NCBI GenBank assembly: GCA_918797485.1
Contig: CAKKNE010000003.1
Coordinates: forward strand, 3,348,001-3,412,000
Direction of reading: 5' to 3'
Origin: Pelagomonas calceolata
Taxonomy: Eukaryota
DNA: 64,000 bases
Positions 12,305 to 57,218 of this stretch are shown here, one piece after another (positions within the stretch are counted from its first letter, which is position 1; each line of letters starts with the position of its first letter). The notes beneath the pieces are model-generated. The model had not been told where the DNA came from and made no database searches. It saw only the letters and a program-made list of their open reading frames with translations. Position numbers and translations under genes: made by a program.

Positions 12305-12394
12305 AATATGAATATTAGTGGTTTAAAAGGGCAGATAGTGTACCTTTTCCTTAGCTACTATCTGCCTCCGAAGGCGCCACTTCGCGGTACAAAG

Positions 12395-19763: not shown

Positions 19764-19920
19764 TGTGTTTTTTTAAGGTACCGTAGGTACCCCCCTAGGG
19801 CGCAGTACGATTTCGAGAGATGCGCGCTTTGTGTTTTGAGGCGTATCTGGGTATTCTACCCCCTCATGTAGCTGCGCTAACCCTAATTAAACTGAATTTT
19901 CAAGACGGCATCGACACCAG

Positions 19921-20530
19921 GCGCCGCGCTGGCAGTGTTCATCCTCGATTTCAAGTTCACTGGCCGCAGGCTTGACTCGGATGCAAGTGCTGCCCTTCAT
20001 GAGATTCGGTCCAATACATGAGGTTCAAAAGAAAATGCGTCATATGATGCAAATTCGATGCTCTGGCGGAGCTGATGCGAAAACCTGCATTCAAGGCACA
20101 GGTGGATACTTTTACAGCAAATGCTGAGGTGGTCGATCAACTTGAAGTAAGTAAGCAAGCACGGTGTTTCCGCTTTCTTAGGAAGCGAACCGCAGCCACT
20201 AACATCGCCCGCTAGTGCTAGTGACGTAAAAGCTCATGCAGCTAGAGCCAAAGTAGACTTCAAGTTCAAGTTGGAGTACAAAAAGTACAGTGCAGAATTC
20301 TCAGGCTCTGGTCAACAGCCCTACAATCACTGGTGAACGCTGCTAGGGATCCTTCACGTCTTGCTGATGCCGTGGCCGATCTCAAAGACCCTGAGATGAT
20401 AAAAAGTGCAAGGGAAATGATGGCTCAGGCTGAGCCGGCATTTCAGGTTGAGATGCAACGGATGATGGAACAGCCTGAAATGCGCAAAGTCGTGGAGGCG
20501 TCACGTTCCTTCGTGAGATGGCAGATATGA
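19921..20530 (+). pseudogene. Frameshifted remnant of a STI1/DP-repeat-like Met-rich helical protein
   Basis: Fragments ELMRKPAFKAQVD and LQSLVNAARDPSRLADAVADLKDPEMIKSAREMM lie in different frames with stops between them, and are interrupted by several +6 octamer words. Confidence 0.55.
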
Positions 20531-21084
20531 ATGCCAGGGCCGGGAACTTGACCCAACCAATCTACTTGACGCGGAAACCTTACTATAATCCGATGTTTCT
20601 CTCAACGTAGAACTGAATCGTCCGCCCCAAGATTAGATTCAGAAGCACACGAGGACGACAGCACATGAGGACGAGATTAGGGGTTCTTATGATCCTGCAC
20701 CTCCGCCTAGCCTACTTGAGGACAACTCGGACCTAAAACTAGGCTACTTGATATATTTGAACAGGCCGTCGACTTTGCTGTGCAAAGCGTTAAACTTTGC
20801 CGAAGCAAAGCGTAATGACGTTCCGTCAGCACGTTGCGCCGCGAGAAATTCAACGTTCCGTTTGGCGAATCGAATGCTCCTCTGAACAAGCGGCGGCAGC
20901 ACAATTAGATTCCCATGGAATTCTTCAAGTTGCAGCTTGAAACAACTCTACTGGCAGCCAGGTGTCTTTGCGATGCCGCCTCAATGAAGTGAATAGAATC
21001 AAGTCCATTTCATTGGGCATCAACAATTTTCAGCAAGCAGGGGGACTTTGATTTCATCATTGGGGTTTCGACGTGAGTGCGGTC

Positions 21085-24643: not shown

Positions 24644-24720
24644 CGAGCAGCCTGAGGGAGAAGGCTCTTAGGAGCTTGTTCCTTTTTTTTAGGTCTTCCT
24701 TAATTAATTTATTTATTTAT
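24644..24720 (+). repeat. Short 3'-end copy of the LINE at 18091-18885
   Basis: CGAGCAG[CCTGAG]GGAGAAGGCTCTTAGG..CTTGTTCCTTTTTTTTAGGTCTTCCTTAATT plus an AT-rich tail matches the reverse complement of about 18100-18173. Confidence 0.85.
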
Positions 24721-25124
24721 CTCACCAATTTGGGGTCAGGCCTGTCGAGTGTAGACCACGACTCCTCCGCACCGAGAATTCTCGAGAAATCCTGGGTAAA
24801 CCCGAATTTACGTCGCAAAGGACCTAAACGTGTTAGCGGCTCGGGAGGCGTGGTCTAAACGCGACAGGGGTCAGGCCCCTTGAGGACTTCCTTAGGAGGC
24901 AGAGCTCTGGAGACATCTCGCTTGGCGGCCTTCGCTCCCGGACCGTGACCGCGCCGTGGCGGCCGCCGCGGCGCCCCCGAGACTTCCCGGGCGCGATAAT
25001 TGGGGATTCATCCTTTGCAAACTTGTACCCCAACTCCCGGGGCGCGCGGGGACCTAAAAGCCCCGTCACCAAGCAGCGTCACCAAACAGGAGGGGGGGGG
25101 GGGTTCAAGTTACCTGTATCATGA

Positions 25125-31605: not shown

Positions 31606-33249
31606 ATGATAACTATTGCATTGTAGGACGTCGTCAGCTCATTGAGGCGTCAGCTCTTCTCCTCCATCATATGGATTAACATCCGACAATAATGACAGGG
31701 TACCAGCTTTGTACCTACGGTATATCTACGGCATTCGAATCCACATACCGTACGGTACCAGCCTGTACCCAGTACCGCATTGCCTCCCCGTTCCAGGGGA
31801 GGGGTTAAGACGCTCAATCCCACTTTTAGTAATCGGGCACCCACCGCAGCCCACACGCGGCATCCCAAGCCACCAAATTTTGCACGCGGTGCATTTACAT
31901 ATAAATTTGGTAGGGTAGCCCGATTTTGAGCTGCAACGAAGCCCCTCGCGCTGCGCACGGACTCGATCATTTTTCGGCATGCCGCGATCTCGGCCTATAC
32001 GCGCGCTCGAGGGACGGCGGCTGCTGCGCTGGGACGCTCGACTATGCATTTCCATAGGAAGTGGCCTTTGTTTCGACGCTGCGGGCCCAGAAGGTGGCCG
32101 ATTGCGTGACTTTGTCCAGCTCTCTCTCGGTGTCGCGGGTGTCGCGGTCCAGTCTGGTGCGTGCTGCGTCAACGACGCCTGCGTGGGTAACTTCTCACTT
32201 ATGGTGGAGGGTGGTGGACGCCTCTTCCACAGGTGGGCCACCGCCACCGGGGCCCGGCCCACCCTGCGTCGCGCGCGCCACCGGGCGCGAAGCAGTCCCC
32301 GCCAACCACGTCCGGCAGAGATGGGGGTTGGTGCGGATTTACAACAAGCGAGAAGGGGAGGGCTGGGGAAACGGGAGAGAGAGTCCTCGGGGAGGCAGGC
32401 GAGCGCTGCCCAGCGAGCCATACATTACAAGTACCGTAGGCGTATCTCGGCCCTAATGGGCCTTGACGTATGTTTCCAGACGAGGTATTTCTAACCCTCT
32501 GTTGCCCAAAAGGAGAGAGATCACGGAAGCATATAGCATCGGTGAAACTGCGATCAACATTCCGGCTCTGGGCCGCGAAGGCCTCAGGCTTTAAGTTCGT
32601 CTCTTAAGTTCAAGTTCCTTTCTTTAAGGTTGACCGGGCCGCTTAATATTTTGAACTTCACTTCGACCCCTTACCCCCCCCCCCAGCCCCCCACACGCAC
32701 ACCTACCTAACAATGTCTTCCCTATCTAAGAACAGGTTGAATTTACGATGGGCCCCCGCACGATGCTAGGATGGCCGCGCACCTGGGCCGTGTCGTATAC
32801 TCAAAGCAGGTGCATCACCTGGGCTGCTCGAGCGCCCGGAAATGCGGGATACTCAGCTTTTCAGCATAATAAAAGACACACGAACCTCCACCTTCGTGCG
32901 CACGAAATCTCGCCGGGCGCGCGCAGAAGCTGTCCCACTGGCACGCACCGTGACGACTGCTACCCTGGTACGTTGGCGGCTTTAGGCTACGAGACACCGA
33001 GAGCCTGAGAACAGCAGAAGATAGTTTTTGCGGAGATCATACCTCCTTTAGAAACATATCTCCTTACCCCCCGATTTTTTCCTTTTAAACTTTAAACCCG
33101 GCGGGCCCCACAATACAAGATAGTACTTGTACTTATACCAGTAGTAGTACTTTGTATAAACTACCCCCGGGGGTCCCCGAGGTCCCTAGAACAGAAATAA
33201 CGCAACCGGAGGAGGACGCTGGCCTATCGGATATGACAGAGGGGTGGGT

Positions 33250-33600
33250 CTATTTAGTGGGCTGCCTCCACGCGCGGTTGGCCGCCGGGTCGCCCCCCTC
33301 GTCCTCCTCCAAATCGTCCTCTTCTTCTTCATCGTCTTCTTGGGCTTGCGGATGCACGCCACTGGGACGCTTTTTTGGGTATCTTGCTCACCGTCCTCAA
33401 GCAAATAATTGATCAAATAACCGCCTTTGTTCTCGACGACTTGAGCATTGTACCAACCACTTCCCCAGAGCACCTTGACCTTTCGCTCACGGCGAACTTA
33501 GCTTCACGACCCCGTTTCCCCCCGGCTCCGGCTTTTTGGCAGGTTTCGACACCGGTTTCTTCTTGGCTTGTTGCTTTTTCGCCTCGAAGCGTTTCTTAAA
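33250..33600 (-). pseudogene. Decayed Tudor/Agenet-like domain fragment with Lys-rich and acidic flanks (possibly TE-derived)
   Basis: AKFAVSE and KVKVLWGSGWYNAQVVE..YLINY.LEDG are offset by a 1-nt frameshift; the downstream EDDEEEEDDLEEDE tract needs a further frameshift. Confidence 0.5.
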
Positions 33601-33787
33601 TCCGCCAGGTCCTATGTGTAATCGTAGGGTTTGTCTTCATCGCTCAATTCAACAGCCCGTTTGCGCTCGTCCAGAGGCACGACGTCGTCGAAGACTGGGA
33701 GACTGTTTTGAAGCCATCCCTCGATTCGAATATACCCTGCACTGTTAGTTCAAGTTCGAGATGGCGTCGTTGGGATTGCCGGCTGCA

Positions 33788-36700
33788 TCAATGTGAGTCT
33801 GACAGCGCCATGTGTCGGTCGCGCGTTGCATGGCCGAACGATGGGAATGTTCGCTGCCTGAGCCTATCTAGCTCTTGTCTCAAAAACTCGACTTCTTCGG
33901 TTTGTAACTTTGCCTATTACTCGAAAGGTTACTCACTGATAGTATACACAAAAAAATAGGCGATGAGACGCACCAAGTCAATTAATCTTCGCCGCAGCGT
34001 AATTCGCTTCATATGGTATCTAGTACGTTGCTCGGCATTTGCTTCTTCAGTAAAGGAATTCAATTGTGACCTTGTAATAGCTTCCCGCACGATGATTGCA
34101 TCATTAATCTGGTTGAGCTGAAGGTGAAGGCGCTTGTTTTCGTCTTCACGGGCTTGTATCTGCTGCACGAGTTTTGAGTTTGTATTGGTTAATGTACTAA
34201 GTTTCTTCTCATTTGCTTTTATCAGTATACTAATTCTCGCCTCTTCTCTTGCTATTTGTTCTGGTGCTGCCGTGGTACTCTGATTGCCCTTAAGAACAGA
34301 CTGTAGACTTTTTGTTACATGCAGCAGCTGCAAGTCTGTGTAGTATTCTTCGAGATCATGAGATTGTGCCTTCAAGAATGAGCTTTCCCATTCCATGTAG
34401 TTGATTGACTTCCTGAAGTGTTTGATTTTGGTCAAGGTTTTGATTTGCTCCGTTCCTAGCTGGGTAATCACTTGATTTATCCCCTGTATTGTTTCCACAG
34501 GCAGAAATATTGCATCGAAGTAGTCTGTGACTGCGGCTTCCGCGTCAACTTCATTCTGTCCTTGCCTAACTTGAACCAAAATCTCGCAATTTACTTCAGA
34601 CGTTGCAAGTTCAGCTCTTATTTTTGCCTGCCGTTTGCGAAGCTTGACAATTTCTTGTTCAATATCTCCAAAGACCACTAGAGAGTTCGCATGCTTTGCT
34701 TTCAGATTGCCTAAGGTTTCTGCTGCATCACTTATCATTGCTTCCTTGGCTACTTTGTGTTTGCGCGAGGATAAGAGCATTTGCCATGTGGTGTCGTCGA
34801 ACCTCCAGTCATCAGGCTTTTCTTCTAGTGATAGATTATTCCGTCTAAAATAGCTAAGTACGAGCTTAATATCTTCTTGGACCATTTGTTTCTCAACTTG
34901 CAGGTCACGCTTCAAGTGACGATCAATATTTTTATCCTCTGCTTGAAGCCTATTAAGCCTATCAGATTCTGCACTGACCAACGATAAGCTACTAGTCACG
35001 ATGTCTGCTTGACAATCCTTTTTGAGATTCAGCGTAGATATTTGAGAGCCCAGTCGACTCAGGGTAATTAGTCGAGCTTCATTTTTAAGTAAACCAACGC
35101 ACATGCGGCTGGAGTAGAGCTCCTGTGTTGTTACAAAGTTCATTATGAAGACCCGATGATCGGCAAGGCGCTTAAGCTTATCATCAAAACTGCATGCGAT
35201 ATCACTAACTTCAGTACGAAGCTTCTTGAACTCAAGCTCGAGCGCCTTTCGATATTTTGCTTGTTGCTGCGCAAGAAGCCCCTTCGCAGTTTCGAATTCT
35301 TCTAGCTCCTTCTTTTGCTCACTCGTCAAATCATCGTGGTTCTGGTCGTCTATCCAACTTGGGGCCTGCAGGACAGTTTGAAGTCTATCAGTCTCTTTTT
35401 TTGTTTCGAGGGTACCATACATCATATCCTCTAAGGCTCGTTTGCTTGCATGGTAATCATCTGTGTTATCAGCATTTAGTCCAGTGCTCTTACGTACCAT
35501 GCATGTAGTAGCTTCTGGCGTGCTGCTGTAGATTTCTGATTTGTCAACCTGGATCATCACCTCTGGTGTCTCTTCTGGTACAGCGAATTGGTGCTTAAAG
35601 TAATCTTCCATAATGCCCAACTCTCCACAGATCCCCTGGAGTCGGTCTGTCTTCTCCAGGATGCGGCCTAGTTCGATGCGCTTTTCATCATGAAGCAAGC
35701 CGAATCGAAAATTGAAATCAGCTTGCGCTTGGCGAAGTAATTCGCCTACCAAGACGCATTGGATTCTCTTCTGAATTGAAGTGTGGAGCGCAATGGGCTG
35801 ATAAAGTTGGGTGGTAGTTAGATTTTCATCCCAAGCTTCTTCTGAGAGCCTTGCTTCTTCATCATCATTTCCATCGTTCTCCAAGGCCCCGTCAAGAAGT
35901 TTTATTGATGCTATGCTGTCGTGTTGTTCAATGTTTATTAGATCGAGTGAAGGTAGCAACTTGCCCTGATTGACCATCCAGGAGATATTGTGTGAAAGTC
36001 TACGTGACAGCACCGACGAGTCCAAACTCAAAGATATCGATGATGCACTTTGTCGCAGTGCAAGCTTCCGTAGAAAACAGACACATTCTAGACAATGCTT
36101 TTGCTTGTCAGCGCGCAGCTTAAGTGGAAAGTTTGAAGTTAGTAATCTAGGGGTAAGAAAAGAGTGACATTCAGTTGCCTGCACTTCCATGCAGTCCCAA
36201 CAGTCATGTCTTATCCGAGCGGATATAACATCACGAGCTTGCTTTTCGACCCTCAGTTGTTTCTCCAGTTCATTTGCTTTCCGTTGACTTGCGGTCAAGA
36301 CTTGTCGATGCCTCGCGCGGTCAATGATAAACTCATTGCGTTCGAGTTTTTCATTCAAACATGCATCGTTATTCTTCGCTACCAATTCCAACAGTCGACT
36401 GCGCAAGTTTGCGATGATACTGCGCTGAGCCGCCTCATGGGATTTTATCTTAAGCGCCGCTAATTTCTCTATTTGCTCCTGACACGATTCACACCAGGTA
36501 GCTTGATGAAAAGACATTGCAGGTATTGGCACATGCTGAATAGTCAACTTGGGGTGCTCGGCTTTGTGTCTCTCTGAAGGAATGGCCAGTGTTTGTGGTA
36601 CCAAAATGTTAAGACTAAAGACAGCCCCATCGCTACCGGAACTATAGAGAATAGACGTATCTAAAGAAAAATGAGTATATGCAACAGGGCCTGTATGTAG

Positions 36701-38611
36701 ATTCATTTGACACAACTTCACAAGATCCACTCCCGATTCAGTCAAGGCTCGCCACAAAGCAATCCTACCATCGACACCCCCCGTGGCCACAAGTTCCCCA
36801 CCATTGGATACGCCCAGACACATTACGCCCTTGTCATGACTTGACTCAATTTTTGAGACTACCAACTTGCCATTTCTATACATAGCATCAGATGACGCAA
36901 GCGCCATTATGTCACAGGAGATTGGGCTTGTAGCCAAGAAGGTGACACCATTTGAATCAAATTTAAGTCTTGACATTCCGGCGCAAGGAAAGTCAGTTTC
37001 AAATTTCCAAGCTGCATTTAGTGAGTGCGCGTCAGAGTCAACAAGGTATGAAATAATGCTCTGACCCGCAAATGCTACCATCAAGTAGTCATTACACCAC
37101 AATGCGCATAGGCTAGCGAGATGACCGCTAAAAGAGGTGTGTGCAAGCACACACAGCGAAATGCTACCCTTCTGAGGAGATGTGTCAACAATAAAAGCGT
37201 TAGACTCTGATATTGCAGCCAGGATGTCTTTTTCTGGGTGAAATATTACACTTGTTATTGGTTCACGGCATAGTTGCAAGTTGCCAAGTGACACAAGATC
37301 GACAAGAACATTATTTTGACTTTTTGGTTTTCCAGATAGAAGAAATATGCACCCTATCGAGGTCCCAACTGCAAAATTTGAATTGCATGGTGCAGATGTG
37401 ATCGATGTAATTGAGACCACACAATCCTCCGAATCCACATCAGAGATTTGGAATTTATGCCTTCCAACAAGGGTTCCATCACGAGTCCACACTCCCAAGG
37501 CCCCATCAGCTCCTGCAGTTACAAGCGTAGGGTCGTTTATCGACTGACAGGCCATTCCCAGGACCGGCCCATTGTGGTAGTCGATGACTGCAGCATTTGG
37601 GCCTGCAAAAATTTTACTGGATGATGCATCTGCACCATTTAAAGTCAATATTTGAATTCTTCCGGGGCCCGACAGCAGGAGACCATCTCGTCTCGGAAGC
37701 AAGCTACACCAAGAGTATTTGCTACAAGGCTCTTTAGCTACATTCAGCATAAATTCAGTTGAGCCGGACGTACTTGTCCTGATACCTTGAACTATCCCGT
37801 TAGAGAATAGCAGCAGGATTATCTCCTCTATGGCAGTGACAAATAAACATAAGGATTCTTGTAGTGCTACAGCCAATGGGAACAAGCGTGTGAGGATCCC
37901 AGAGTGGGCATCGAACTCCATTACGCTGCTTCTGCCAACAGCAAGAACGAGGTTGTTCTGCGTCCAGCACTGCGCACTTATCGAATCCAGAAGTACATTT
38001 CCGTCTTCCGCCGCATCCTCTCGACTGCCGATTACTGCGTTTATCCTCTGTAACTTGTGGTCATTGACCACTTGGACTTTCCAAAAGACCAACCCGTAAC
38101 TTCCTCCTGTGCATACCATAGAAGAATTCTTTGGACTGAATGAGCAATTATGCCAAGTGCATGGTGTTGCCAAGTTCCCGCCGATCGCAACCTTGGCGAG
38201 GGTCTGTGCAATTTCAAGAGACCATAGATACAAGTGATGATCAAATGGGCCCGAAACTGCACACAGCATTTTTGCATTATGTGATATTGCGATACTCTCA
38301 TATTCTAGATCAGTCCCGCCTCTTAAAACACTTAATGGATCCAGCTGAGGGTATTTTAAGACGTGAATGCAGGGCTCCGCTGAGCGCGGGGCAAATGCGA
38401 CGAGATGTTCGGGGACGCTAGTGGTAAATGCTGAAATGCCAAGGGGACATTCGAGATTGTTTGTCACGAACTTGGTCGGTCCAACGTTGGCTAAATCGGT
38501 CAAATCGGAGATCGCCAACCCGTTACCGTGAAGGTAGACGACAACATCCTGATCAATGAACGTAACCTCGCCACCGGCAAAGCCAAGGTGTCCCAAGATG
38601 CTGAGACCCAT
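33788..38611 (-). CDS. CFAP43: Cilia- and flagella-associated protein 43 (WD40 plus coiled coil)
   Basis: WD40-rich N-terminus, RALEDMMYGTLE, VRQGQNEV, and a last exon after one intron (about 33914-33973) giving RRRLIDL|AKLQTEEVEFLRQELDRLRQRTFPSF. Confidence 0.85.
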
Positions 38612-38818
38612 GGCGTAACGCTTAGGATTTAGCAATTAATACAGTATCTTATCTTAGCAAAGAGAATGTCGTAGCGTGTTATAATGTAGCGAGGGTCCTA
38701 GACAACGGGAGAGTGCCCCGTACCCGCGAGTATTGGGGTAAACGTCGGACTAGACTCGATGCGAAGTCAATAGAACAACAGTGGGTCGGCTCGACTCGAA
38801 AAACAAATCCGACTCGCC

Positions 38819-38857
38819 GGCCCGGGACTCCGAGTCGGACTCAGGCTCGGCCCGGGA
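38819..38857. repeat. Six nested/tandem +6 octamer insertions
   Basis: GGCCCGG-GA-C[TC-CGAG-TC]G-GA-[CT-CAGG-CT]-C-[GG-CCCG-GG]-A: 39 bp collapse to GGA after removing six hexamers by the rule. Confidence 0.85.
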
Positions 38858-39797
38858 GTCGGCAGCATTATACAATCCGAGTCCAGGGCACCAGAAGGGC
38901 CTGATTTTCCCGTGCCGTGCCGCGGCCAGTGGAAGCTTACTAGATTTTGACCGTGAATCGGACGTTTATTTCCTTGCACCCCGCCTCGGGGCCTGCACTG
39001 GCACTGTTAGTGTTATGTAGAAGTGTTATGTGGCCTTCAAGTTCGGCTAGGCAGGGCCGGAAGCCGGATATCCCCTAGCAGCCCTATATAGATATTTAAA
39101 GATGGATATTTAACGACAGGAAATAATGAGTGAAGAATTAGAGGCCGATTTCTCCAGTCTGTTGGAGCGATTGCGTTCCGGGCGGGTTTTATGTCGGACC
39201 ATCGCACCGCGTCGCAGCTGCTTTCTCAGCGCGAGGCTGCCTGCACGGTACAAAACTTCGCGCAGCCCATTATTTTAGCATACGGAACCTGCGCCTCAGC
39301 AAAATTTTCCCGCCATTGGTCGGCGCTTGGCTGTACGCTCATTGCGCCAAATACCGCAACGTCGACAATTGCGCGGGTTAACCCGCCTATGAATTTCGAA
39401 GTCTCCAAGGAGTCTTAAGCGTCGCAGGCTAATTCATTCTAATTTGAGCTAAAGGGCAACTTGGAATCGGACCTAAAAATTGGCTACTCAAGTCAGGATT
39501 CTCCCCCAAAGGACCGCCGACGGGATATGTTATCCTTCGAGATCTTGAACCCGAACGGACGCTTCTCTTAAACCATTTTGGCGAATATTTTGGCGAATGC
39601 AGGTCGCGGCGGCAATGAAAGTGGTGCTTGTAAGTTCCTCACGCGTCATGTCACGTCATGATCTCTCGCCGTCGCCTACTAGTAACTGCCAATTTCTACA
39701 CGTAGTGCATCGTGTCCGCCTCGGTAGACCCAGGGCGTGCGGGAGAGAGGAAGGACGCGTATGTGCGCGCACAGCCTTACGAAGTGAGAGGCCGGAG

Positions 39798-41000
39798 CTA
39801 CACTCGCTCGGGTATCTTCATGGCCGAAAGAATGTATCCTGCATTTCCGGACGTGGTCATGGCTGGATGAGAGCAGCTTGTTAAAACTTGGAACTCCCTT
39901 TGCCAAACTTCCGTGAGTCTTAAATTAACGGCAGCTTTAGATACCCTAAGCCAAATAAACACACGTGTGAGTGGTTCGACGTGCTCCGAATAAATCACGA
40001 ATGAGCCGCCAACACGAAGCAGAGGAAGTAGGGTTTTAAGGATGCTAAGAGGCTCGTGTCTAGAGGCAAGAACCTAAGGATAGATACATGAGAACCCCCC
40101 TTAGGACTCAGAGTCAAAAATAAAGATGGAAATTCGCTCGGTGGCAACCAGAGCATCCACCTTGCTGCGGAAATGCTGCAATCGTGGGGCTATCTCGCAA
40201 TTCTGAATTACATCAGCGGCCTCAGCGTTACGTGTTTTCAAATTAATAACTTTGGGAAGTGACGCTCTTTGGCCCATAGAGTGTACGTCTGCTTTTGAAA
40301 CAGTTTTCATTGGAGCTTGTAAGTCGCTAGGGGAAAATATGGTTTTGCCCTGTGGACCCACCAACTCTGCGACCGCACTTAGTACAACGCCATGGAATGT
40401 GTCCATCACAACAACACGACTTCCAGGCCTCGTATTACTTCGAGCTACAAGTTGTGCAATTACGTCCGGTCTGACGGCCTCTTTGTGCTTGGTCATCCGT
40501 GTAAAGTAAGCTTCGGCGAGGACAAAGGCAGTAGGTTCTAAAACCTGCACCCAAGGCATGTACTTCTTTGCCTTGCGCTTAAGCCACTTCGTTTTGGAGT
40601 ATTTGGTCTTTACACCCCATGTTGAACTCCCGAAGGCAAGAGCCTCAATTATTGCCAGACCAGAGTCACCTCTCGTTTTCATCGCCTGGAGGGTCATCGG
40701 ATTCACGATTTGAGCTTTGTTGTCATCATTCAGGTAACGATTATCGTTACTTCCCGAATGCATGCTACTCATCCTGCGATTTCCCGCTAATAATGCGCAT
40801 GGATCCAGAATGTTGCGGCTCGCTGGCATGAGCTTCCCCTCGGCTGCCACTGCGAACAAAGCACCATACTGCGATGAGATTAGTGAGTCGGCCTTACAGT
40901 TTGCTTTGCTAATTCGTAGCTTAATCCCAGTTTTACAATCGGCAAATACATAACCGCCGCCCGCAGTTAGGAGGACAACCGAATCGCCTGCAAGGGGCAT
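39798..41000 (-). CDS. TRM6: tRNA (adenine-58-N1)-methyltransferase non-catalytic subunit (Gcd10/TRM6), 2 exons
   Basis: DNRYLNDDNKAQ, STWGVKTKYSKTKWLKRKAKKY; exon 2 has LRLTEVWQREFQVL...HPAMTTSGNAGYIL. Confidence 0.9.
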
Positions 41001-41844
41001 TGCAAGGCTGTGTGTGCGATTGGCACGCCACTAGGGTTTCTTTTTACGAACTTGTGTTTTACTGTTGCGAGCTTGGATACGGCGCCAAGGGCCTCCAAAC
41101 CTACACGACGTTTGCTTCAGCCTAAGTTCAGGCCGCGAGGCTACAAGGATAGACACAGGGGGGGACTATGAAACGACATACTACATACGGAACCGGGGGC
41201 AGCGGTATTGCGGCTGCCCAAGTACCAGCGCGGGCGTCCTACGACGCCTCCACCCACCTGGTATCGTATCGACGCCAACATGACCCCGCTGATGAACACG
41301 ACGGTCTGACGTCAACACGCGGACACTCTCGTACAGCCATCCTGACCGTGAGGTCGCGATTCTCTCACGTCCGAGTCCGGCCCGCCGCGCAAACAAAATG
41401 ATGACTCGAGGCGCCAATAATGTGTCGACATGTCGACAGTCTATCTTTCGCTAATGAGCGTGAATTTGGCAGAATCGGCGACCGGGGCGGTCGATCGCGC
41501 CCCCGCTTTTGACGTAAAATGCCCCCGCTAGCCTCCAGAGCTCGCGGGTTCTACGTCTCGACAGCGTAAAGGCAGGGCGCCCTGTCATGTATGAGATTAC
41601 TAGAGACATGATGATCTATATTCCTACTAAGCTAGACACGAGATTGTCGGCCTGACGACGCCAGATCATACACTCCAGCGAGACATCCTTTTTGGGAGAG
41701 CCCACCTATATCCACATAGATCATGATTTTTCCTAACTTGATATGATTTGCAGGATTCTCTGAGCTCAGCCTCAGGCTGCTAATCCGGTGTGTTCAGCTG
41801 CCGTAAAGTCTAGCGTTCAGGGGTTGCGTTCAAATAAATTCACA

Positions 41845-42669
41845 TTAGCAGCACGCCTTGGTTTCGGCAGGCTTGGGCCTGACGCAGGGTAGTAAGAAAT
41901 TCATGCCAAAAAAACGTCAACTCTCGTTGGTACGCACGGAATTAGTGGAAATGCCTCTCGGTCTGATTGGGGTGCATGTGATGGCAACTTCTGCGCTACG
42001 CCGCCGGAGATGTGAGCCTTGATAGACAGCCCATACGTACCAATCTCATGAAAAAGTGATTTGACATTAGTATCATTCTTTGCTGATGTTTCTATGTGCA
42101 TGATTCCATTTTCTTCTGCATACTGTTGAGCTTCCTGTGACTACAAATACGCTGAGGGCAGCCGCGATCAATCACACCTGATAATCAATCTTCCGCTTGC
42201 TTTGTAAGTCTGCCTTGTTGCCAGCAAGCGCGATGACAGCATTAGGATCACCACGTCGTTGCAATTCTTTCACCCAGGACTTTGCACCATTAAATGAGTC
42301 TTTATTTGTTATATCGTAGACTACGATTGCAGCCGCCGCACCTCGATAGTACATTGGGGCGAGACTTCGATAACGCTCTATGGAAGAACTAAGCTGGAGT
42401 AACTCACAAAGTTTCCTGTCTCACCTTGTCCAGCGGTGTCCCATATCTCAAACTTGACAGTTGCAGCTCCGGTCGCAACAGATTGCGTTAAAAACGCAGC
42501 TAGGAGAGAAAATAAAAAACGCCAGCGACAAAGGGCGGGTACCTCCAATTGTTGGCTCCTGAAACTCGAAGAATTCGTCACGGACGAAACGGACGACTAG
42601 GCACGATTTCCCCACCGCCGTGTCACCGAGGAGCACTAACTTAAAGTGGCATACACGTGCAGCACTCAT
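41845..42669 (-). CDS. RAB5: Rab5-family small GTPase, multi-exon
   Basis: [55 protein letters not shown] and a C-terminal CC. Confidence 0.93.
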
Positions 42670-42840
42670 CACCTCGGGCAGCACTCGTCTCCCTAGTGGC
42701 TAGTGAAATAGCAGCTGACTAATAGTTGGGAATTTATTCTTTGCTCAGTTGCCGCCCATCGGGCCAACCAATCCCGGGGATAGGTAGTAGATCTCACCGG
42801 GGCCCCCTTCTATCAAACGGGAGGGAGGGCGGGCTAAATA

Positions 42841-43000
42841 AATCTGAGGACCGGCGTGAACCACAGCCAATTTGGCTTTGTGGTTGGCCGGAGGATCCGA
42901 GGGGAGCCTAAGGCTAGTACAGTAACCAGGGTAACTGTGCTAGCTGGCTCCTAGCCTCGCGTTAGAATTTGGTGCACTCACAGAGGTGTCCCACTGGCAG
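42841..43000 (+). repeat. Dispersed repeat family A, copy 3
   Basis: Colinear blocks shared with 16205-16345 (reverse) and 25125-25290. Confidence 0.7.
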
Positions 43001-43153
43001 CCCAAGGGGCAGCCTGAGCGGCCCACTGGCACTGCAGGAATAACCTGGGTTGTGTTTGGTGCCATAATAGACCCCATTGTGCTGGAAGCCAGCGTGGAGA
43101 AAATTTCTCAGGCACATGGTGCCTCTTTGTGTAAACGACAAATGTCACGACGG

Positions 43154-43522
43154 CAGGGTGGGACGCCAAACACTTACCAAACGTTTACTTCTCCCTCCGA
43201 GAGGCCTCCAAACACTTACCATCACGTCCCAAACACTTACAACCCGCACCCACGGTAACTTGAACCCGCGCGCGGCCGGGCGGCGGCCCATTACCGCACT
43301 CCCCGGGTGCCCCCCGCCCTGGGCAGCCCTAGCGACGTACCTGGAGTCAATTGCAGCCCGATATGCCGGTATTTCTCCGGTCTTGGCCGTTTAAACCCAC
43401 TTTTCCGAAGCAAAAACCCGTACCAAACACTTAGAATTTCGTCCAAACACTCACGTCAAACACTTAGATTCGGGCCGAGACACTTACCAAACAATCCCCA
43501 AAAGGTCTTGCGTCCCACCCTG
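43154..43522. mobile_element. hAT-superfamily MITE (369 bp)
   Basis: 13-bp TIRs CAGGGTGGGACGC (43154-43166 and 43510-43522); perfect 8-bp TSD CACGACGG (43146-43153 and 43523-43530); multiple subterminal CCAAACACTTA repeats. Confidence 0.92.
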
Positions 43523-44491
43523 CACGACGGTCGCCACAGTGTCTTGTAGCCTAGTAGTTGACTCGGAGGATGAACATATGTAAATATGACTGGGAATAAA
43601 ATACCCAGCTAGCTGAGAAATACCCAGAGGGCCCAACAGATCATGGATAGGCCCCTAGTACACTAGGCCGCTAAATACGTTGATGTGCCCCACATCGTAG
43701 CATTCCGAGTCAGCTTACCCTAGTCTCCCTAGTGGCTAGTCACGGTGACTCGGAAATAGCATATGTTGCAGCGTTACGCCGAGAACACCGAATCGGTACA
43801 CCATGGTACAACAAGTTGACCGTAGCTTCGCCCGGTCGTACCAGGGTAGCAGCCGCGCGCGGCACTGGCAGCTTGTGCGCACGCCCCGGGCCGGCGAGGT
43901 TTCGTGCGGACAAACTTGACTCGGAAGGGGATATCCGCTTCGAGTATGCGAAATAGCCTACAATACAACCTACAGAACCCTCTACCAATTCTTACGGTAA
44001 GGATTCAAGTTAAGTGTATTCATGATTGAGAGGCAAATGCCACTGGCAACGTGCTACTTGATGATATTTACCAAAACGCACATTTCAATGAAACGAACGA
44101 CAAGGATTGAGGGCGATTTTCACCCCCTTTTTCACCAAAGGGAAACAAGAGCTTACCCTTATCAAAAGGGGGAGTGCGATAAACAGGGCGAAATACCCCG
44201 GCGCCCCCCCCTATCCTATACTATATATAGTACCCTTCTTATACACTTACATCACCCTTAAGCCCGCAACGCGTAATAAACACAGTTAAACCAAAATTAC
44301 TTAGTGTATTTTAAGGTAGCTCCGCGGCAGACTATCTCAGCCGCCGCACTCCCAAAGGTGCGTACTCCTTTGGTCTTGCATTATTCGCACAGATCCCTAA
44401 CCAATCTACAATAACTATCTTATTTTATTGCATCCGTAAGAGCACCGTATGTGGAGGTTCCAGCGACAGTCATAACGTTGCCTCCAAACTC

Positions 44492-45268
44492 ATGGAGCGG
44501 ACGAATCGTTCGCGGAAGCACTTGGAAAACGTCTTGTGTCTCCAAGAAATTTGTCATCTGAATGACCGCAAGGTAGCTCTAAAGGAAGACAATTTCAAAT
44601 ACTTAATCGGGCAGATGGACTTGCGCAGCATCGTGGGAGATTTTACGGCCGCTATTCTCCTCGAAAAACCAACAAGGATATTCTCTTTTGCATCTGAGCA
44701 TTTTGCAGCGCTGAGAACCTCGACGACGCCAAGTCCGCCAATGCTAAATGAAGGAGTGCCCGCTCTTGTTGTTACTGGTGCCAGACAACTGCAGGTCTTG
44801 GATGCGTTGAACCAACAATTCCCAGGGAAATTCCTATCTCCAGTCATGACAACAACCAGACCGCCACATCGTAGTGAGCGACCGGGGATTACAATGAACT
44901 TTGTCACTCTTGAGATGATCAATGCAGACATTAGAGGCGGAAAATACCTAGAATCTGGTGCCTCAGCAGAAGTCGGCTGCAAAGGTGAGCTGATTGGAAC
45001 TACGCTGGAGGCGGTTGCACGTATTCGAGCCACAGGGGCTGTCCCATTACTCCATGTTTCATACGAACGTGCTGTCTCAGCTCGCATGTGCGGCAACATC
45101 AAGCCCACCCCCTATGCAATATTAGTGTGCAGTGAGAACGAGCCGCCCCAACAGGAACACAGGTCTAGTTTTGATAAGCTTATCTACGCGAGGAGCCTAG
45201 ATCAAGTAATTGCGGAACTAGTCGCTGTGATCAAGGCAAAGTTTCCCACTGTGGTCCGGGCTTCTTAA
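44492..45268 (+). CDS. Guanylate-kinase-like protein with an N-terminal RIIa-like docking motif
   Basis: LRSIVGDFTAAILLEKPTRIFSFASEHF (RIIa/D-D-like); TTTRPPHRSERPG...FV, GKYLES and GTTLEAV (GK-like). The P-loop is degenerate. Confidence 0.7.
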   Translation: MERTNRSRKHLENVLCLQEICHLNDRKVALKEDNFKYLIGQMDLRSIVGDFTAAILLEKPTRIFSFASEHFAALRTSTTPSPPMLNEGVPALVVTGARQLQVLDALNQQFPGKFLSPVMTTTRPPHRSERPGITMNFVTLEMINADIRGGKYLESGASAEVGCKGELIGTTLEAVARIRATGAVPLLHVSYERAVSARMCGNIKPTPYAILVCSENEPPQQEHRSSFDKLIYARSLDQVIAELVAVIKAKFPTVVRAS

Positions 45269-45934
45269 TATATGAAGGTATCTTGCGGGGTTTGTCTTGC
45301 ACTGTGGGTAATTTTGGCGCGGCATCTGCGCCGAAAATGATTCACGACGAGTAGAGTCGGCCGTCGCGGTGACAACTTGAATTGCGCGGTCGTGAATATT
45401 GCCGCGAAGCATTTTCTCACTCCGGGAGACGCAGCGGCACTACCGCGGCTCTCATTTCGCACCGTGACGAAGCCAGTCTTCTTTCGAAGTCCGGCTTCTA
45501 CTTTACTTACTGAGTACGGCTTGTTAAAGTCACAAGAAGCAGACCGGCTCGGAACACAGCCCATACTCACCGCAGCATCCCGAGCATACCACAGCTCGCG
45601 AAAGGTCCTTGTGTCGGGCCGATGCTATGTCTATCCTTTTGTCTGAGTCTAGTCGGCCCAGGGTGGAATTTGGACGCCGTCGAGACCCGAATATCCTTGT
45701 CCCCCTTGGGATGCCTGCCAAGCGGCGCGATGTAAGCCTTTGCGTCCCCTGGTCCTCGCCATGGTCTAGGGCCCGGTGTACTTATGCAACGCTCGCTGCT
45801 ATTGAGCTGCCTTTTTTTTGCCGCGGCTGCCCCCCTCTCCCGCTAAGGACGAGCAGCTGCTCTCGCAAGCACACCAACCCAAACTCTCACTCCCAAGACG
45901 AGGCCAAGCACTCCTAGGACCTACTCTACAGTCT

Positions 45935-45960
45935 CTACTGGATCTTTAAAGATCCAGTAG
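45935..45960. repeat. Perfect 26-bp palindrome
   Basis: CTACTGGATCTTTAAAGATCCAGTAG equals its own reverse complement. Confidence 0.9.
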
Positions 45961-46027
45961 CGTGATGTGGGGCTCGCTCCTCTGCCTCCTCCATCATTCG
46001 ATTTCTAATTTATTTGTTACGAGAATA

Positions 46028-46739
<712 letters not shown>

Positions 46740-47739
46740 CTGCCTCAGGAATACAGAGTCGCAGCTAAATACCGTGTATTGGCTGCAGGCTGCCTTCTAA
46801 TTGGCCAGCTTGTACTCCCTCCTTCCTGACCCTCCTCGAGGAACCTAGCGGGGCGGGTACGGTAAAGCCCGGCACCGGCACTCCTTTCGCGAGTTTCTCC
46901 ACCGCGGGGGGCGACGAGCTCGCACGACGGGGGGGGTGGGTGGGCGACAGGGTAGGGGCTCGGAAGTCGCTGGGGGCCCGTCGTGCTCGACTCCGACTAG
47001 TAGAAGGCCGACCCGTTGCCCATCGCTCGGACCCCCGCCGCCGGAGATTGATTTTGGCAGGCCGCCCGGCGCCGCGCCTCGGGGGACGCGGCGCGCTCGG
47101 CCCCAGTCAAATGTACTAAGTCACTGAGTACTAGTGGGAGTCGATCTCGGCTGGGTCGACATAAACATCGAGTAAACCCATCAACTTGAAACGAGTAATT
47201 GCCTGGCACTCAAGCGCGGACACATGCACTCAGCTTTGCCCGGTCGTACCTGGGCAGTAGCGCCACAGGCGTACAACTTTTAGCAACGTCGCGACGAGAT
47301 TTTGTGCTTACGAGAGTGGTTAACGGCTTGGAAGCCGAACCGCGGACCACGCTCGCCGCAGAAGCAACGCACTGGCCACCTGGGTGCCGATATGTGTTCC
47401 CACTTGGCCAAGGCCCGCACTGCGGGGCGCTTAGGGCAGCGAAACGACTTAGTATTTTATAAAAGGCAAGAATTACTAAATTTAGCTAAAAATCCCGCCT
47501 CCGTTCTAGTGAGTTAGGTTCGTTGTGACAACTACGTTGTGGAGGTCTGAACTTCACTATTCTGGTTTTCAAAAACCTCCTGGGTTTTCAAAAGATGCCC
47601 GAAATCCGTACTGGGTTTCCAAAGCATCTCCGAATTTCTTCAAAAGTTTACTATACCAGAATAGTCAAATCTCCCTTAATCTTCGCTCTGTTGGCCCACC
47701 GGGTGCGTCGCAAGCTTTATGAGATTGTGGGTGCCGAGT

Positions 47740-48448
47740 CTACTTCAGGAGATTTCTGATCAAAGAGCTTTGTGCCATATTTAGGGGCAGTTTGCCTTCC
47801 TTATTCACGATTCGCTTGTTGCATACACTTAAGAGAAATTGGACTGCATTTTCAAATCCCATTTGGGCAGCGAGATGGAGTGCTGTGTTGCCATCTGTGT
47901 CCTGGGCATTTATATCTGCGCCGTGCTCGGCAAGCGTTTTCAGAGACGATACATGCCCGAAGAGCGCGCCATAGTGCAGGGGGCGCATGCCAGCTGCGTT
48001 TTGTGCATTGACATCCGCATGTGATTCAATTAGGCGCGCAACAATGTTGATCGCACCACGTGCAGCAGCAACGTGGAGGGCTCTGGTACCAGTTTCATCC
48101 GAAGCGTTCGGATTTGCGTCGTGACGCAACAAAAGTGTGACCATAGTCTCGCAAGAGCAGCTGACCGCATGCTGCAGCGCTGACCAACCGCCGAAGCCTG
48201 TCGCGTTAACATCAGCCTTGATGCTAGATAGATACTTCACCGTTTCGTCGTGTCCGTTGCGTGCTCCCCAAACTAAGGGCGTCGTTTGAAATAGGTCATG
48301 GGCATCGACTTCCTGGCCATCTGTGGAATTCATGTAGCTCATTACCTCCTTCGTCTCACCGAGCCTAAAGCCATACATTTAAAGAGTCCCAGTCGCACAT
48401 GAACCTCGATAAGGCATGAATTGTATTCTTTTTGGTCGTGGAGGTCAT
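47740..48448 (-). CDS. Ankyrin repeat protein
   Basis: About five ankyrin repeats (TPLVWGA, SALQHAV, RALHVAA, RPLHYGA, TALHLAA). First exon uncertain. Confidence 0.85.
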
Positions 48449-48574
48449 ATGCTCGTTAGGTGCTTATAACCTACGGTACCTACGGTGGTAAAGATACGAG
48501 TTTATTAGCACGAGCTGCGCACGCTGAAAAAAAATGTCCGGTCACACAACGACTTCCCCGCCCCGATTTCGGTT

Positions 48575-48716
48575 GCCGTCACTGTGACTCGGAGGCTCCT
48601 CAGGGTTTGCCAGCCTGAGTGCCACTGGCAGTGACCGTGACTCTGAGTCGGACTCGGATATCCAAGTCCGACTCGGAGTCGCCGCGGCGGCCGTAGCACA
48701 GCTCCGACTGCCAGTG
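48575..48716. repeat. Octamer-word cluster with nested insertions
   Basis: TGCC[AG-CCTG-AG]TG 48608-48621, TGC[CA-CTGG-CA]GTG 48620-48633, plus ACCGTGAC, GACTCGGA three times, GCCGCGGC and TGCCAGTG. Confidence 0.8.
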
Positions 48717-49445
48717 CGCACCGGCGAGATTCCGTGCGTACACTGGCGAAGGTGGTATCCACCTGTCGCCGGATGATAGGCCCGGGGGGGGGGGGGTCGA
48801 ACTTGAAGTTTGAAGGTGGGACTGGCTTCCCCTAGCCGGAGATCGGTTAGTTCGTTGGAGTAACATTCTGCCTTCGCCTGCGACGCTTAAAACTCTGTGG
48901 AGACCTCGACATTTCTAAGGCCCGGCGGGGGGGTCACCGTGACTCGGACCGGGTCAAGTGCTAAGCCTATTAGCGTAACGTTGATTTTATTTTTTGGCGC
49001 AATGAGCGTACAGCCACGCGCCGGCCGGGTGGCGGCAAATTTTTGCTGAGGCGCAGGTTCCGTATGATAAAATAATGGGCTGTGCAGAGTTTTGTGCAGT
49101 GCGGGCAGCCTCGCGTCGAAAAATCGGCTGTGCCGCGGTAGCGCTGTCGACCTCGAACGCGCGAGCTCTGGAGGCTTGGGGCTCAGCGTCACGGTCAAGT
49201 GATTTTTAAAAGATCGTGCTGGGAGGAAAGCAGAGAATCCCCGCGTTTTTAGACGCTTCGAATAGACGATACGGCCGAAGAGTGCTCGTCAGGTACCGTT
49301 TCTTTCTTTCTTTCCCATGCTCTAGAGCCGCAGTACCCCTTGCAGTACCGGTACCACGGTCCGTCCCCCGTGACTGGCCCCCGGCAGCTCAGGAGCTGCG
49401 GTACTTCGTCCGAGGTTCCCGACCGGGTTGGCTTGCATTGAATCT

Positions 49446-53241
<3,796 letters not shown>

Positions 53242-53750
53242 CGATTTCGTTTTGGGTAGTGGCCTTTTTACACCATTTTCGAGCATCCAGAGGTCATCAC
53301 GACCTGTATTCGCTACGCTCACAGGTCATCACGACCTCTAAGCTCGAAACAGGCGCAAAAAAAGCCCAACCGAAAAAAATTCAGCATTGACCTTAATTAA
53401 TTAAGTAATCATGCCAGTGATATCAAAAAGAAAATTTGAAAACTGAACGAGCAAAGCGGCGAAGTTCGGTTCCGACTTAAGCCCTCTTACATGCCGTCCA
53501 GGCAAAACCCATACCGTCTCGACCGCCCGGGCCGGGCCGCCCACTGAAGGGCCCGGCACCCAAAGTGAGAGAATACCGTAGCTCTTCCCCTTTCATAGCT
53601 TAAACCCGCAAACTTGCTACGAACATACTTAAGGTAATGACTAATATTCACGCAAAACAGGGGCTGCAAACGGTAGGGGGGTTTGGGGTGCGCCGGCCGC
53701 GGGCAGGCCGCGGGCCGGACGGCGGAGACTCAAAGTTCCAAATCGACGTC

Positions 53751-53825
53751 GTCGTCGTCCGCATCGTCGTCGTCCGCATCGTCGTCGTCCGCATCGTCGT
53801 CGTCCGCATCGTCGTCGTCCGCATC
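53751..53825. repeat. 15-bp tandem repeat, 5 copies (GTCGTCGTCCGCATC)
   Basis: Five perfect copies; reads (DADDD)n on the minus strand. Confidence 0.9.
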
Positions 53826-54643
53826 GACTATAACCCCGCGCCGGTCCCCGGGCCCGTGGTTTCTCGCAGGAGCGCCCTCGAAGCTCTCTATTCGTCCGCG
53901 TCGACTTCGACGCGGCCGCCGCGGTGCAATGAATTCCAGCTTTTCGAGAGTGCTTGAAGTTGTCCGCGGGGCTCGGGGCATACCCACCGTACTGTCCGCA
54001 CCGTTTTTTTTGTGCAGTGGCATGCCCACATCACGTATCGCACATCATGTGGTGGGAGAGCGATTTGGCGCACCGCGAAATGTTGTGCTGCCGCGCTTTT
54101 TCTTGGCGCACCGCCTCGGCCGAATCCTTGAGCGGTCAGAAATAGCTTGGGGCTGCCTATGGGTGCGTTTAGGCCGCGCACGAGGCCAAAACAAAATCAC
54201 GTTTAATCGAGATTCACGGGTTTTTGCCGTTTTTCAGCACGCCGCTGCGCCCTAGTCCCGATCCCCGTACACCCCCCTGACCTCAGGCGGCCCTTAAGAG
54301 GGCCCTATGAGTCCCCCCGACCCAATCCGCGGGTACAGGCTAACGATGGAGCGAATCCCTATGGTGGGTGCCGGCCCCGTGCCCACTGGCACGCCGTCTC
54401 GGCAAAATGAACCATCGATTTAAAACCCGATAGCCTAGTAGTAGTTTTTTTGTGGTTTTATGAAACAACTCCTAAGTACGGGCGCATTGTGACGAGGCAG
54501 GATACTAGTAGTCACACTGGCATCCCCGCTCGCAATGAAGTACGAACTTGTGAACTTCGACTCCGAGCCTGAGTCAGTGCCCTGAAGTTTTCTGACTTGA
54601 GGTGGTCCCAGTTGCTCACCCGGTTGCTCGGGACCTCGCCGCA

Positions 54644-56317
54644 TCAGAAATATGTTCCATCCTCGCCCCCGTGATCCGGCGGTACCTTGCGATGGAATGC
54701 TCGTATTTCATTGTAAAGCATTTTCTGTAGGCAAGCCTTGTTGAGCTTTGTTGCCTCGATATCATCAACCTTAACATGAAAACCGGCATCTTGCTCGAGC
54801 TCATACTCACGAAAGTCTTCGACGTACTTATGTTTGAGTGCCCCGCGAAGAGAGATGCGACCTTTTGGGTTGAACACAAGCATGCGCGCAAGAAGATTCA
54901 GAGCATCAACATCTTCAACTTTGGGAAATTTTATTTGGAAGTTTTGGGACTTATAATCAGGGAGCTGCAGCATAAAATTCATTGCGTTTTGATTGGAGAC
55001 AAACCAGAGATCTGCTTTACGTGGGCGGCCCAGTAATTTGACAATGAGCTTCAGTTGGTGAATGTAATCATTTCCAGGAAATACAGGCTGTAAAAGAAGC
55101 ATTTCACCGAAGATACATCCAATCGACCACATGTCGATTGCCTGGTCGTACGCATGGAAGCCAAGCATGATTTCAGGTGCCCGATACCATCTAGTGACTA
55201 CATATTCGGTATATTCTTGTGACAAGACTCCATCTACTTCATTATCACTTTTTGTTATCGTATTATCATCGATCGCCTCCTTTTGACCAGTGGTGCCTCG
55301 CGCCAAACCAAAATCACATATCTGTAGGTTGCATGTTTGAATATCAATCAGTAAATTTGATGGCTTAAGATCCCGATGGAGGACAGATGAGGAATTTATG
55401 TAGTTCATACCAGCAAGTAACTGATAAACAAGATACTGCATTTGCTCGCCGGTGAGTTTTGTCTTGGAATACAAAATTTTCTGTAGGTCAGTTGACATCA
55501 GCTCCGTAACAATATATAAATCTTCGAATCCTTCGATATATGGTGGTTCCATGATATCATAAAGTTTAACGACGTTCGGATGATTAAATTGACGCATTAG
55601 TCGCACCTCGCGCAGCATGCGCTTTGCATCTACCATGTCCTCGAATGCGTTTGCCACCTTTTTTATTGCAACCTTTTTGCCGGTCAAGACCTATGGGCGT
55701 TTACGTGAATAGGAATCAGACATGAACTTTTACATCATCTGCGGCAACAACGAATCCATACGCCCCCGACCCGACTTTGTTTAACAGTTTATACCTGGAG
55801 AAGAGAACATACGGATGTAAATGGTAATCCAATTAGAAGGCACTGACTGCACTTTGGGTCAACAAACCAATCAGTGCCAGAAAACTGAGGGTGTGTCGTG
55901 GTAAATACGATAGGTGGATTAAAATACACACGTGTACCATTGTTTGGCTAACAACTATCGATATGCAATCACGAAGGCATTTTATCCACCTGTCACGGTT
56001 TTCGTGCGTCTCCGAGGCCACTTTAAGTGCGCGGCCTGCCATACATTGTAACGTCACATTGTGTTCATACTACCTTTCAAGATTACTTGGAATGCATGCG
56101 GCCTGCCAAGGAGCAAGTCGACTTTTGTATCCGAAGTTAGCACAAGTGTTGCTCTGGCGGTGTCACTAAGATGGGTCTTTTCGTCCTTGAAGTATGTCAG
56201 TTGCGCTGGTTTTGTTCCGCTCTGACACAAAATAAAATAGCGCTTTTGCCATCTCATCCCACCCTTTTTTTGCAACATCCCCTCGCACTTGATATCTTGT
56301 TCAGAGCACAGAGCCAT
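54644..56317 (-). CDS. PH-domain-containing MAP kinase (TEY activation motif), multi-exon
   Basis: N-terminal EGMLQKKGGMRWQKRYFIL...RDRWIKCL (PH), spliced to GSGAYG, VAIKK, HRDLKPSN, DFGLAR and TEYVVTRWYRAPE. Confidence 0.9.
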
Positions 56318-57170
56318 TTTCAAGGGCTCGGACAGGATATATCCCAATTCAACTATAAGATTATTTCATAAGATTATTTCACGCAAAAATACCGTCAAAG
56401 CCATATCTTCCCATCCAGCCCCACTAGCCCCACTGCCCCACTTTCTAATATCGGTGTCTATACTGTTGTTCCAACATTCACGCCGACACGGGCAGCACCA
56501 CTGGCAGTAGCCTGAGTGTCTCAGGCTCCCGTCGCAGCCTGAGCCTGAGCCTACTAGCCTCCTGAGGCCGGGACCGTGACCAGGCAGGAGGCATTGCTCG
56601 ACACCCCGGGCTTGCCCGGGTTCAAGTTATGGCCCGGGCCCGGCCCGGGGCCCACAAGGTTCCGCCTACTGACGAAGAGGTTTAGCAAAAGTTAGTAATG
56701 CCAGTGGTTAAAAGCAACAGAAAGAAAGGAACTTGAAGTCGCGGAGCAATTTGAAATCGTCACCGAGACTCGGATCAAGCAATGGAACAAGCCTGAGATG
56801 CCATGAACGGTTTAGTACAATCCTTCAAGTTGCTCTCTAATGAATGACACGGAGAACTTGGCCCTTGAAAATGACATCATCCGGGACTTCGTAGTCAAAG
56901 TTTCATTACACGAGTCGCTCGGCCATCAGACCGGGTCCCGTTCGGGGACGCCACCCCCAAAATTGGTCGCGGCAAGATTATTTGACATAACGTTTTATTG
57001 ACGAGCTTAGCCCGGGCGAAAACACCTCCGTCGAGGAGCGTTTTATCGTCGAGTTCTGGTTCGATCCAGATATTGATGCAACCGGAGCCTGGATGGCCGG
57101 AGACACGGCTATTGGGAGCCGACTTCGGACGGTATACTGTTTCCTGCACTACGTACTGCTTCCCTACGGC

Positions 57171-57218
57171 GCTTGTTCCCTATTTTAGGTCTTCCTTAAT
57201 TTGGTCTTCCTTATTATT
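57171..57218 (+). repeat. Third, shortest 3'-end copy of the LINE
   Basis: GCTTGTTCCCTATTTTAGGTCTTCCTTAATT resembles 24674-24705. Confidence 0.7.

Follow-up and report, generated by a model that had tools for sequence, protein, structure and literature searches.

The non-coding DNA of this 64-kb region of Pelagomonas calceolata (the window, by which we mean the whole stretch analyzed) carries many copies of one short word, XY-C-rc(XY)-G-XY, in which a dinucleotide is followed by C, its own inverted copy, G, and the dinucleotide again. Some of these words lie inside one another, and this nesting is the product of sequential insertion at hotspots. A complete word adds six bases (+6) to a single XY, and a shorter form that adds three (+3), XY-C/G-XY, segregates at palindromic XY. 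The geometry of the scars is very probably of the hairpin type. We hypothesize, with a probability of about two in three, that the words are the footprints left when a cut-and-paste transposon, having C...G ends and a 2-bp target duplication, was excised.

The window is gene-dense with a GC content of ~50%, and its genes include CFAP43, B9 (flagellar), Rab, MCM and adaptin. Its TRM6 protein shows 98% identity to a protein cluster that includes a P. calceolata member. The P. calceolata genome has a mean GC of 63%, and each chromosome has one region of 52% GC which, in the available text of the genome studies, is read as centromeric with support from Hi-C (PMC9481584; 10.1101/2021.10.25.465678; 10.1101/2024.10.30.620910). 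The window probably sits inside such a low-GC, centromeric-type region. The locus was present in 20 public runs, and ten loci (L001–L010) were extracted, eight of them from the same species as the window. Wild alleles of the scar locus were compared in eight contigs and four runs. Alignments comprised 4 of 24 records on positions 38400–57900 and 4 of 24 on 32350–39100. The alleles, including those prefixed X below, come from metagenome contigs, among which mosaics are possible, and L006 looks mosaic. L009 is a sister-species locus, ~89% identical, that has no alignment at the scar stack described below.

Automatic collapse found 185 words in its first round, 178 of them outside the 25 coding intervals that were listed by hand; the seven inside are no excess over other spacer pairs (mean 10.3). 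The 27,166 non-coding bases hold 177 raw words, compared to a mean of 8.2 and a maximum of 18 in 200 dinucleotide shuffles. Words that follow the rule top the list of 8-mers, and all 16 dinucleotides are represented as XY. When the two spacers were varied, the C/G rule gave the 177 matches and the other 15 spacer pairs gave 3–48, the higher-scoring of these mostly having C or G letters in common with it. Words with one mismatch numbered 295, versus 148–183 for four decoy rules, which indicates that older, decayed words exist. In 15 kb of L009 there are 26 words, one of them nested, which is more than for any of the other 15 spacer pairs; L010 showed no enrichment (7 words versus 0–9 for decoys). 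A general scan for other hairpin-scar geometries (n 2–9) found no second abundant class. The words are concentrated upstream of genes (10.8 per kb versus 3.9, with gene ends set by hand). No account of the word was found in titles and the starts of abstracts, and a term search did not find it in the P. calceolata genome paper, the preprint text and the supplements, of which one was a picture-only PDF and the gene table was partial (PMC9481584).

Comparison of alleles defines the product directly. Empty alleles have XY once and scarred alleles have it twice, so that the target duplication is 2 bp; both XY copies are intact, and a C and a G that are not target letters have been gained. A C before and a G after the word were present in only 13 of 90 isolated words. 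This shows that the C/G spacers did not come from the target, and a reading of the word as a 4-bp C-XY-G target was ruled out on the same count.

The deepest series of nested words lies upstream of CFAP43. The initial annotation had reported that positions 38819–38857 reduce to GGA on removal of six words, which we reproduced; as a measure of depth its six layers hold as far as they go, but they are an undercount, as three older layers surround that stretch. The features of this region are:

33929–38611, minus strand: CFAP43 gene, its ATG ~200–250 bp from the scar stack, which is upstream
38808–38860: whole scar stack, 53 bp from which nine removals (eight +6, one +3) leave one TC
38815–38819: +3 scar CG-C-CG, within the oldest GA word (start 38811)
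38819–38826: GG word, absent in L002, L005, L007, L008 and X12, and with another GG word nested inside it in L004 and X11
38826–38839: GA word with a central TC word (38829–38836), the TC absent in L001 and L003
38838–38857: GA word that holds a CT word (38840–38847) and a GG word (38849–38856)
38918–38931: GC word nested in a TG word, in the same promoter region as the stack
38982–38984: site empty in the window, with GC +6 in L001, L004, X5 and X11 and CG +3 in L002
38996–39003: CA word, absent in X12

Peeled from the outside, the stack consists of a TC word with three GA words at its center and, inside these, the CG +3, GG, TC, CT and GG scars. Its three outer layers (TC, first GA, CG +3) are common to all eight same-species loci, so these layers come from the parsing and not from allele differences. 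Among the alleles, L006, X5 and X6 are the same as the window at the stack, and L001 is the window minus the TC word exactly. L004 and X11 are identical to each other and equal L001 plus two other inner words, a GG inside the first GG and, within the GA word at 38826–38839, a CT at another offset in place of the TC. L003 has the L001 state plus ten upstream bases that read by eye as a CC word, enlarged by one G, and a CG +3. Three words, the first GG, the TC and the CT, are missing from L002 and X12, which have a private TC word and a second GG word (38849–38856) one base short, and also from L005, L007 and L008, in which that GG word and the third GA word are unparsed. No allele was observed to have an inner word without its outer word, except for these decayed or unparsed copies in L002 and L005/L007/L008. 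The site at 38982–38984, empty in the window, carries in L003 a CG +3 with a nested GG +6. The composite of a GA word with an inner CG +3 also recurs as a presence/absence difference at ~33000 in L007 and L008.

Five close haplotypes differ by 1–8 SNPs per 2,901 coding bases and by ~7–8 scar events in the 53 bp of the stack, and no indel of 3–16 bp was found in the CFAP43 ORF among the eight alleles. Between the window and the eight loci, the aligned DNA contains 262 SNP positions and 82 distinct indels; 14 of the indels are 6 bp in length, and nine of these 14 are exact rule words. Private words were found in every lineage, which suggests gain, and stepwise gain of the +6 product is demonstrated by the alleles, though in single cases loss between XY copies is possible. 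Polarity is taken from these private words and not from a tree, because the CFAP43 tree left the alleles unrooted (support of 0.11 at the outgroup node, with conflicting sites).

Further scar sites in the window are:

12190–12310: cluster of 12 words, 121 bp reducing to 49, holding A[AC-CGTG-AC]TTGAA at 12257–12270
16420–16545: cluster of 8 words, holding the [CA-CTGG-CA]AGTT example at 16472–16491
32985–33200: second polymorphic hotspot, where L007/L008 have about eight scars absent from the window, two of them nested
48590–48720: cluster of 10 words, holding 48608–48633 and 48667–48680
63545–63915: clusters of 17 words in two blocks, holding AACT[TG-CCAG-TG]AA at 63584–63597

In the third of these clusters, nested words are present at 48608–48621 (TGCC[AG-CCTG-AG]TG) and 48620–48633 (TGC[CA-CTGG-CA]GTG). 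All six nested stretches quoted in the initial annotation were found in place and recovered by automatic collapse. In the densest clusters 40–60% of the bases are scar, which makes this process a main source of promoter sequence here.

Words that became visible only after the first collapse numbered 16 without overlaps and 17 with overlaps. Such second-round words had a mean of 0.04 and a maximum of 1 in 200 dinucleotide shuffles, and a mean of 0.71 and a maximum of 4 under 63 decoy rules. When the same words were kept and placed at once near their own sites, only 0–0.09 nested words formed (maximum of 2), and at each of three jitter widths none of 500 runs reached 16. The excess of nesting over shuffled controls that the initial annotation had expected is therefore borne out in the window. 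Of 19 hidden words that matched on the long side, 14 also matched on the short side (offsets 1, 2, 4 and 5), and inner words occupy all five internal offsets (counts of 4, 2, 4, 4 and 4). The initial annotation's proposal of sequential insertion is likewise backed by the alleles as well as by the parsing.

The sites of insertion must be narrow. Sequential insertion simulated evenly over the whole window gave 3.0 nested words, and simulated per intergenic segment it gave 4.8 (maximum of 11 in 300 runs), which bears out the strong local hotspots that had been proposed. With sites jittered by 500–50 bp, simulated insertion gave 6.2–9.9 nested words and 0 to 1 of 150 runs reached 17; with jitter of 25–6 bp it gave 11–14 and 7–15% of runs reached 17, a null built from the observed sites and thus circular at small widths. 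As 17 was reached in >5% of runs only with sites redrawn within ≤25 bp, the hotspots are tens of bases wide; the existence of hotspots is demonstrated. There was no sign that a scar draws the next insertion more than does the DNA within ~10 bp. The suggestion that the scars form a readable, ordered record holds for inner after outer; words that lie side by side are not orderable from one sequence and need alleles for their order.

Palindromic targets behave differently. Words of +6 were about threefold rarer there (17 per 6,519 palindromic sites versus 160 per 19,495 others; p 3e-7), and the +3 form is demonstrated by three clean 3-bp indels (TA-C-TA, CG-G-CG and AT-C-AT). Three +9 indels are +3/+6 composites. 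Clean +3 indels were found at palindromic XY only, the sole non-palindromic case being a plain tandem duplication. Near scars, palindromic XY-[C/G]-XY numbered 86 versus 54 for XY-[A/T]-XY; far from scars the counts were 223 versus 207. Inside rule words the 40 +3 patterns had five matches, two of which allow a second parse, versus none for 40 A/T controls. In bulk 5-mer counts, +3 was clear for TA (1.74 versus 1.08) and weak for AT, with no support for CG or GC. The +3 prediction was tested when the low counts at palindromic sites and some indels of three bases were already known, and so was not blind.

The following steps would account for both products. Insertion of the putative element would give XY-C...G-XY. 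At excision the first nick, by a putative transposase, would fall one base within the element, and each flank would be sealed as a hairpin that retains the C. A host nuclease would then open this putative hairpin two bases beyond the C, so that the 3' overhangs would read XY-C-rc(XY), and pairing of the last two overhang bases followed by gap filling would produce the +6 word. Because two five-base overhangs can pair fully only if XY is palindromic, the model ties the +6/+3 split to palindromy: at such sites, full pairing around a C:C mismatch would yield XY-C-XY or XY-G-XY. Subsequent insertions at the same open promoter would fall in older scars. Other TIR elements in the window indicate that cut-and-paste elements have been active here, and promoter insertions in a haploid may be purged unless they are excised, which would leave scars without resident elements. 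The low-GC regions are reported, in the available text of the genome paper, to show no accumulation of transposons (PMC9481584).

TIR scans of the 64-kb window and ten loci gave no unambiguous case of an element with C...G ends and a 2-bp duplication, and Pfam scans of 33 + 137 translated frames gave no transposase domain. Among the available entries of the P. calceolata gene table a single transposase is named, of the Tc1-like type, and CACTA is absent; transposases are often lost in annotation pipelines. Several candidates for the agent were rejected. The TIR pair at 17770–18933 reads equally as having a 4-bp GGCC or a 6-bp duplication, GGCC being favored by a +7 scar at another GGCC site; the element at 43154–43522 has an 8-bp duplication and belongs to another family; and other C...G pairs with 2-bp duplications turned out to be longer hairpins or to have longer duplications.

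For hAT, Transib, MULE and RAG, the opening of flank hairpins by host enzymes is established (PMC5499845). The scars resemble the footprints of hAT elements (Ac/Ds, Tam3, Hermes) and V(D)J coding joints in having an inverted flank copy at the joint and in microhomology joining. They differ in that hAT elements make an 8-bp duplication rather than one of 2 bp and, in the available text of the sources, leave mixed footprints that center on, and usually lose, the base next to the element, whereas here one extra base is kept per side. Ds footprints comprise palindromic insertions and microhomology joins, with 28 types in 128 events (PMC5873905), and only 8 of 94 rice excision footprints were perfect. 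The scars consist essentially of two products, +6 and +3, in stacks nine deep; known excision footprints are far more mixed, which counts against the transposon reading. The portions of the transposon literature examined contain no description of a flank hairpin combined with a nick one base inside an element.

Tc1/mariner footprints, which come from 3' overhangs of the TIRs, resemble the scars in having a 2-bp duplication with letters of the element ends between the copies. Mariner is TA-specific, however, whereas all 16 dinucleotides serve here and TA accounts for only 3 of the 185 +6 words; clean +3 scars occur at palindromic XY only, and the inverted XY copy requires a further step. The scars appear to share their mode of repair with hAT, Transib and RAG while falling outside both hAT and mariner. 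The duplication length and ends suggest that the CMCT clade (EnSpm/CACTA, Mirage, Chapaev, Transib, Plavaka and ESTA) is the best fit for the putative agent. Its members encode a DDE transposase with C(2)C and H(3-4)H motifs and mostly have 5'-CA..TG-3' ends and 2–5 bp duplications (PMC12730594), a range that includes the 2 bp found here, and Transib makes flank hairpins; of the CA..TG termini, only the terminal C and G would be visible in scars. No report of this footprint was found in the CACTA literature (titles and starts of abstracts). The comparison also draws on the available parts of PMC9860276 and PMC4423477.

The transposon reading demands very strong re-targeting and short residence, given ~7–8 events in 53 bp among five haplotypes. 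Many independent events at one 50-bp site would be explained more simply without an element, if a host enzyme of the Spo11/topoisomerase VI type, leaving a two-base 5' overhang, cut open promoters of the centromeric domain, and the ends were filled, given one C each by a Rev1-like activity, sealed as hairpins and rejoined in the same way; an abortive transposase reaction would act alike. The P. calceolata annotation contains SPO11, Ku and a Rev1-like gene, there is a slight excess of C directly before XY (63 of 180; p 0.01, uncorrected), and the words are denser near gene 5' ends (123 in 11,343 bases nearer 5' ends versus 52 in 13,388 nearer 3' ends). Promoter bias fits transposons too, and the two-base stagger with this 5' bias fits Spo11/TopoVI and a transposon equally. 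Mouse SPO11 is similar in its 2-bp 5' overhangs and in the repeated cutting and end joining of narrow hotspots, but its products, in the available text, are deletions, duplications and fragment insertions with no fixed +6 word (PMC12918824). A pathway that adds exactly one C per end with a hairpin is not described in the portions of the literature examined, and recombination is thought to be low in centromeric regions (PMC9481584). We consider such a host mutator, which would write an ordered, self-nesting tape of +6/+3 words, to be possible but doubtful.

Fold-back synthesis gives inverted, locally templated insertions, and template switching or polymerase-theta-type synthesis at spontaneous breaks would dispense with a hairpin-forming enzyme. 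Such synthesis would not account for a constant two-base arm or for constant C/G spacers (177 versus 3–48), and the split of +3 and +6 by palindromy requires symmetric five-base overhangs; we regard it as improbable. Selected promoter motifs or slippage, with nesting as a by-product of word overlap, would agree with the clustering of words upstream of genes and with ten tandem pairs where local nulls have 5–7, and the repeated CT-in-GA unit of L004 and X11 may owe something to slippage or conversion. However, one algebraic rule spans all 16 dinucleotides, inner words destroy outer words, and slippage offers no source for rc(XY), C or G. Words are present or absent among haplotypes only 0.03–0.3% apart, and controls that keep the words without sequential order gave <0.1 nested words. 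As the initial annotation had argued, the nesting is not predicted in this way; the alleles and word-kept controls refute it for nesting, and as an account of the words it is very improbable.

Their uniformity allows the scars to be parsed by rule, and they thus provide a countable history of breaks in the non-coding DNA of this very abundant marine alga. Scars can be used to order alleles, as a fast marker for population structure, and scarring may be relevant to the low conservation described for these centromeric regions (10.1101/2024.10.30.620910). Under the transposon reading, the +6/+3 pair would fix the positions of the enzymes, the nick one base inside the element and the hairpin opening two bases beyond it. 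Should there be no element, the scars would point to an undescribed repair-mutation pathway, and the host mutator, unlikely as we judge it, would be a natural sequential DNA recorder that, at the hottest sites, outpaces point mutation >10x.

During these analyses we noted other repeats. A second, TA-centered scar family comprises TA-CCG-TA and TA-CGG-TA (ten each), TA-CAG-TA (five) and TA-CTG-TA (three), with examples at 5847, 5856, 5910, 19779, 31712 and 31746; TA-CCG-TA-GG-TA is a +9 presence/absence difference in L003 (window 44400). These scars possibly come from a TA-targeting element with CCG ends, and the gene table lists the one Tc1-like transposase. The 369-bp element at 43154–43522 has 13-bp TIRs and a perfect 8-bp duplication, a hAT-like MITE by duplication length, and its region is missing from L003, L007 and L008. 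The TIR element at 17771–18932, possibly Academ-like, has TAGG...CCTA ends and a palindromic site, and holds an A-tailed LINE-like fragment that is also found at 24655–24720, at 57171–57202 and in L009. Alleles differ at ~32240 by a +7 scar, GGCC-NAA-GGCC.

A 219-bp repeat at 44174–44392, at ~170x single-copy depth in X2, starts with GT, ends with AG and has short terminal inverted repeats. By these features it is likely an intergenic Introner copy. Another copy has a loose end that terminates in CAG, and the repeat is a possible C...G-ended candidate agent; a 23-base pattern from the high-copy repeat had no matches in viral contigs. At 32535–32985, 41341–41527 and 42686–44236, alleles differ by intergenic replacements of 100–1,400 bp with flanking genes 99% alike. 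The intergenic segments 19400–19855 (minus strand) and 20200–20560 (plus strand) are gene-fragment-like, the first SANT-like by eye with no Pfam match. Polymorphic 9–10 bp duplications with 3–5 base spacers (+13, +14) at 39008–39030 and 39084–39106 are possibly footprints of a long-duplication element. By eye, L009 has a ~90-bp hairpin element (CAT...ATG, 3-bp duplication) at ~90–200 in its own coordinates, and the window has a 128-bp TIR element with a 7-bp duplication at 24741–24868.
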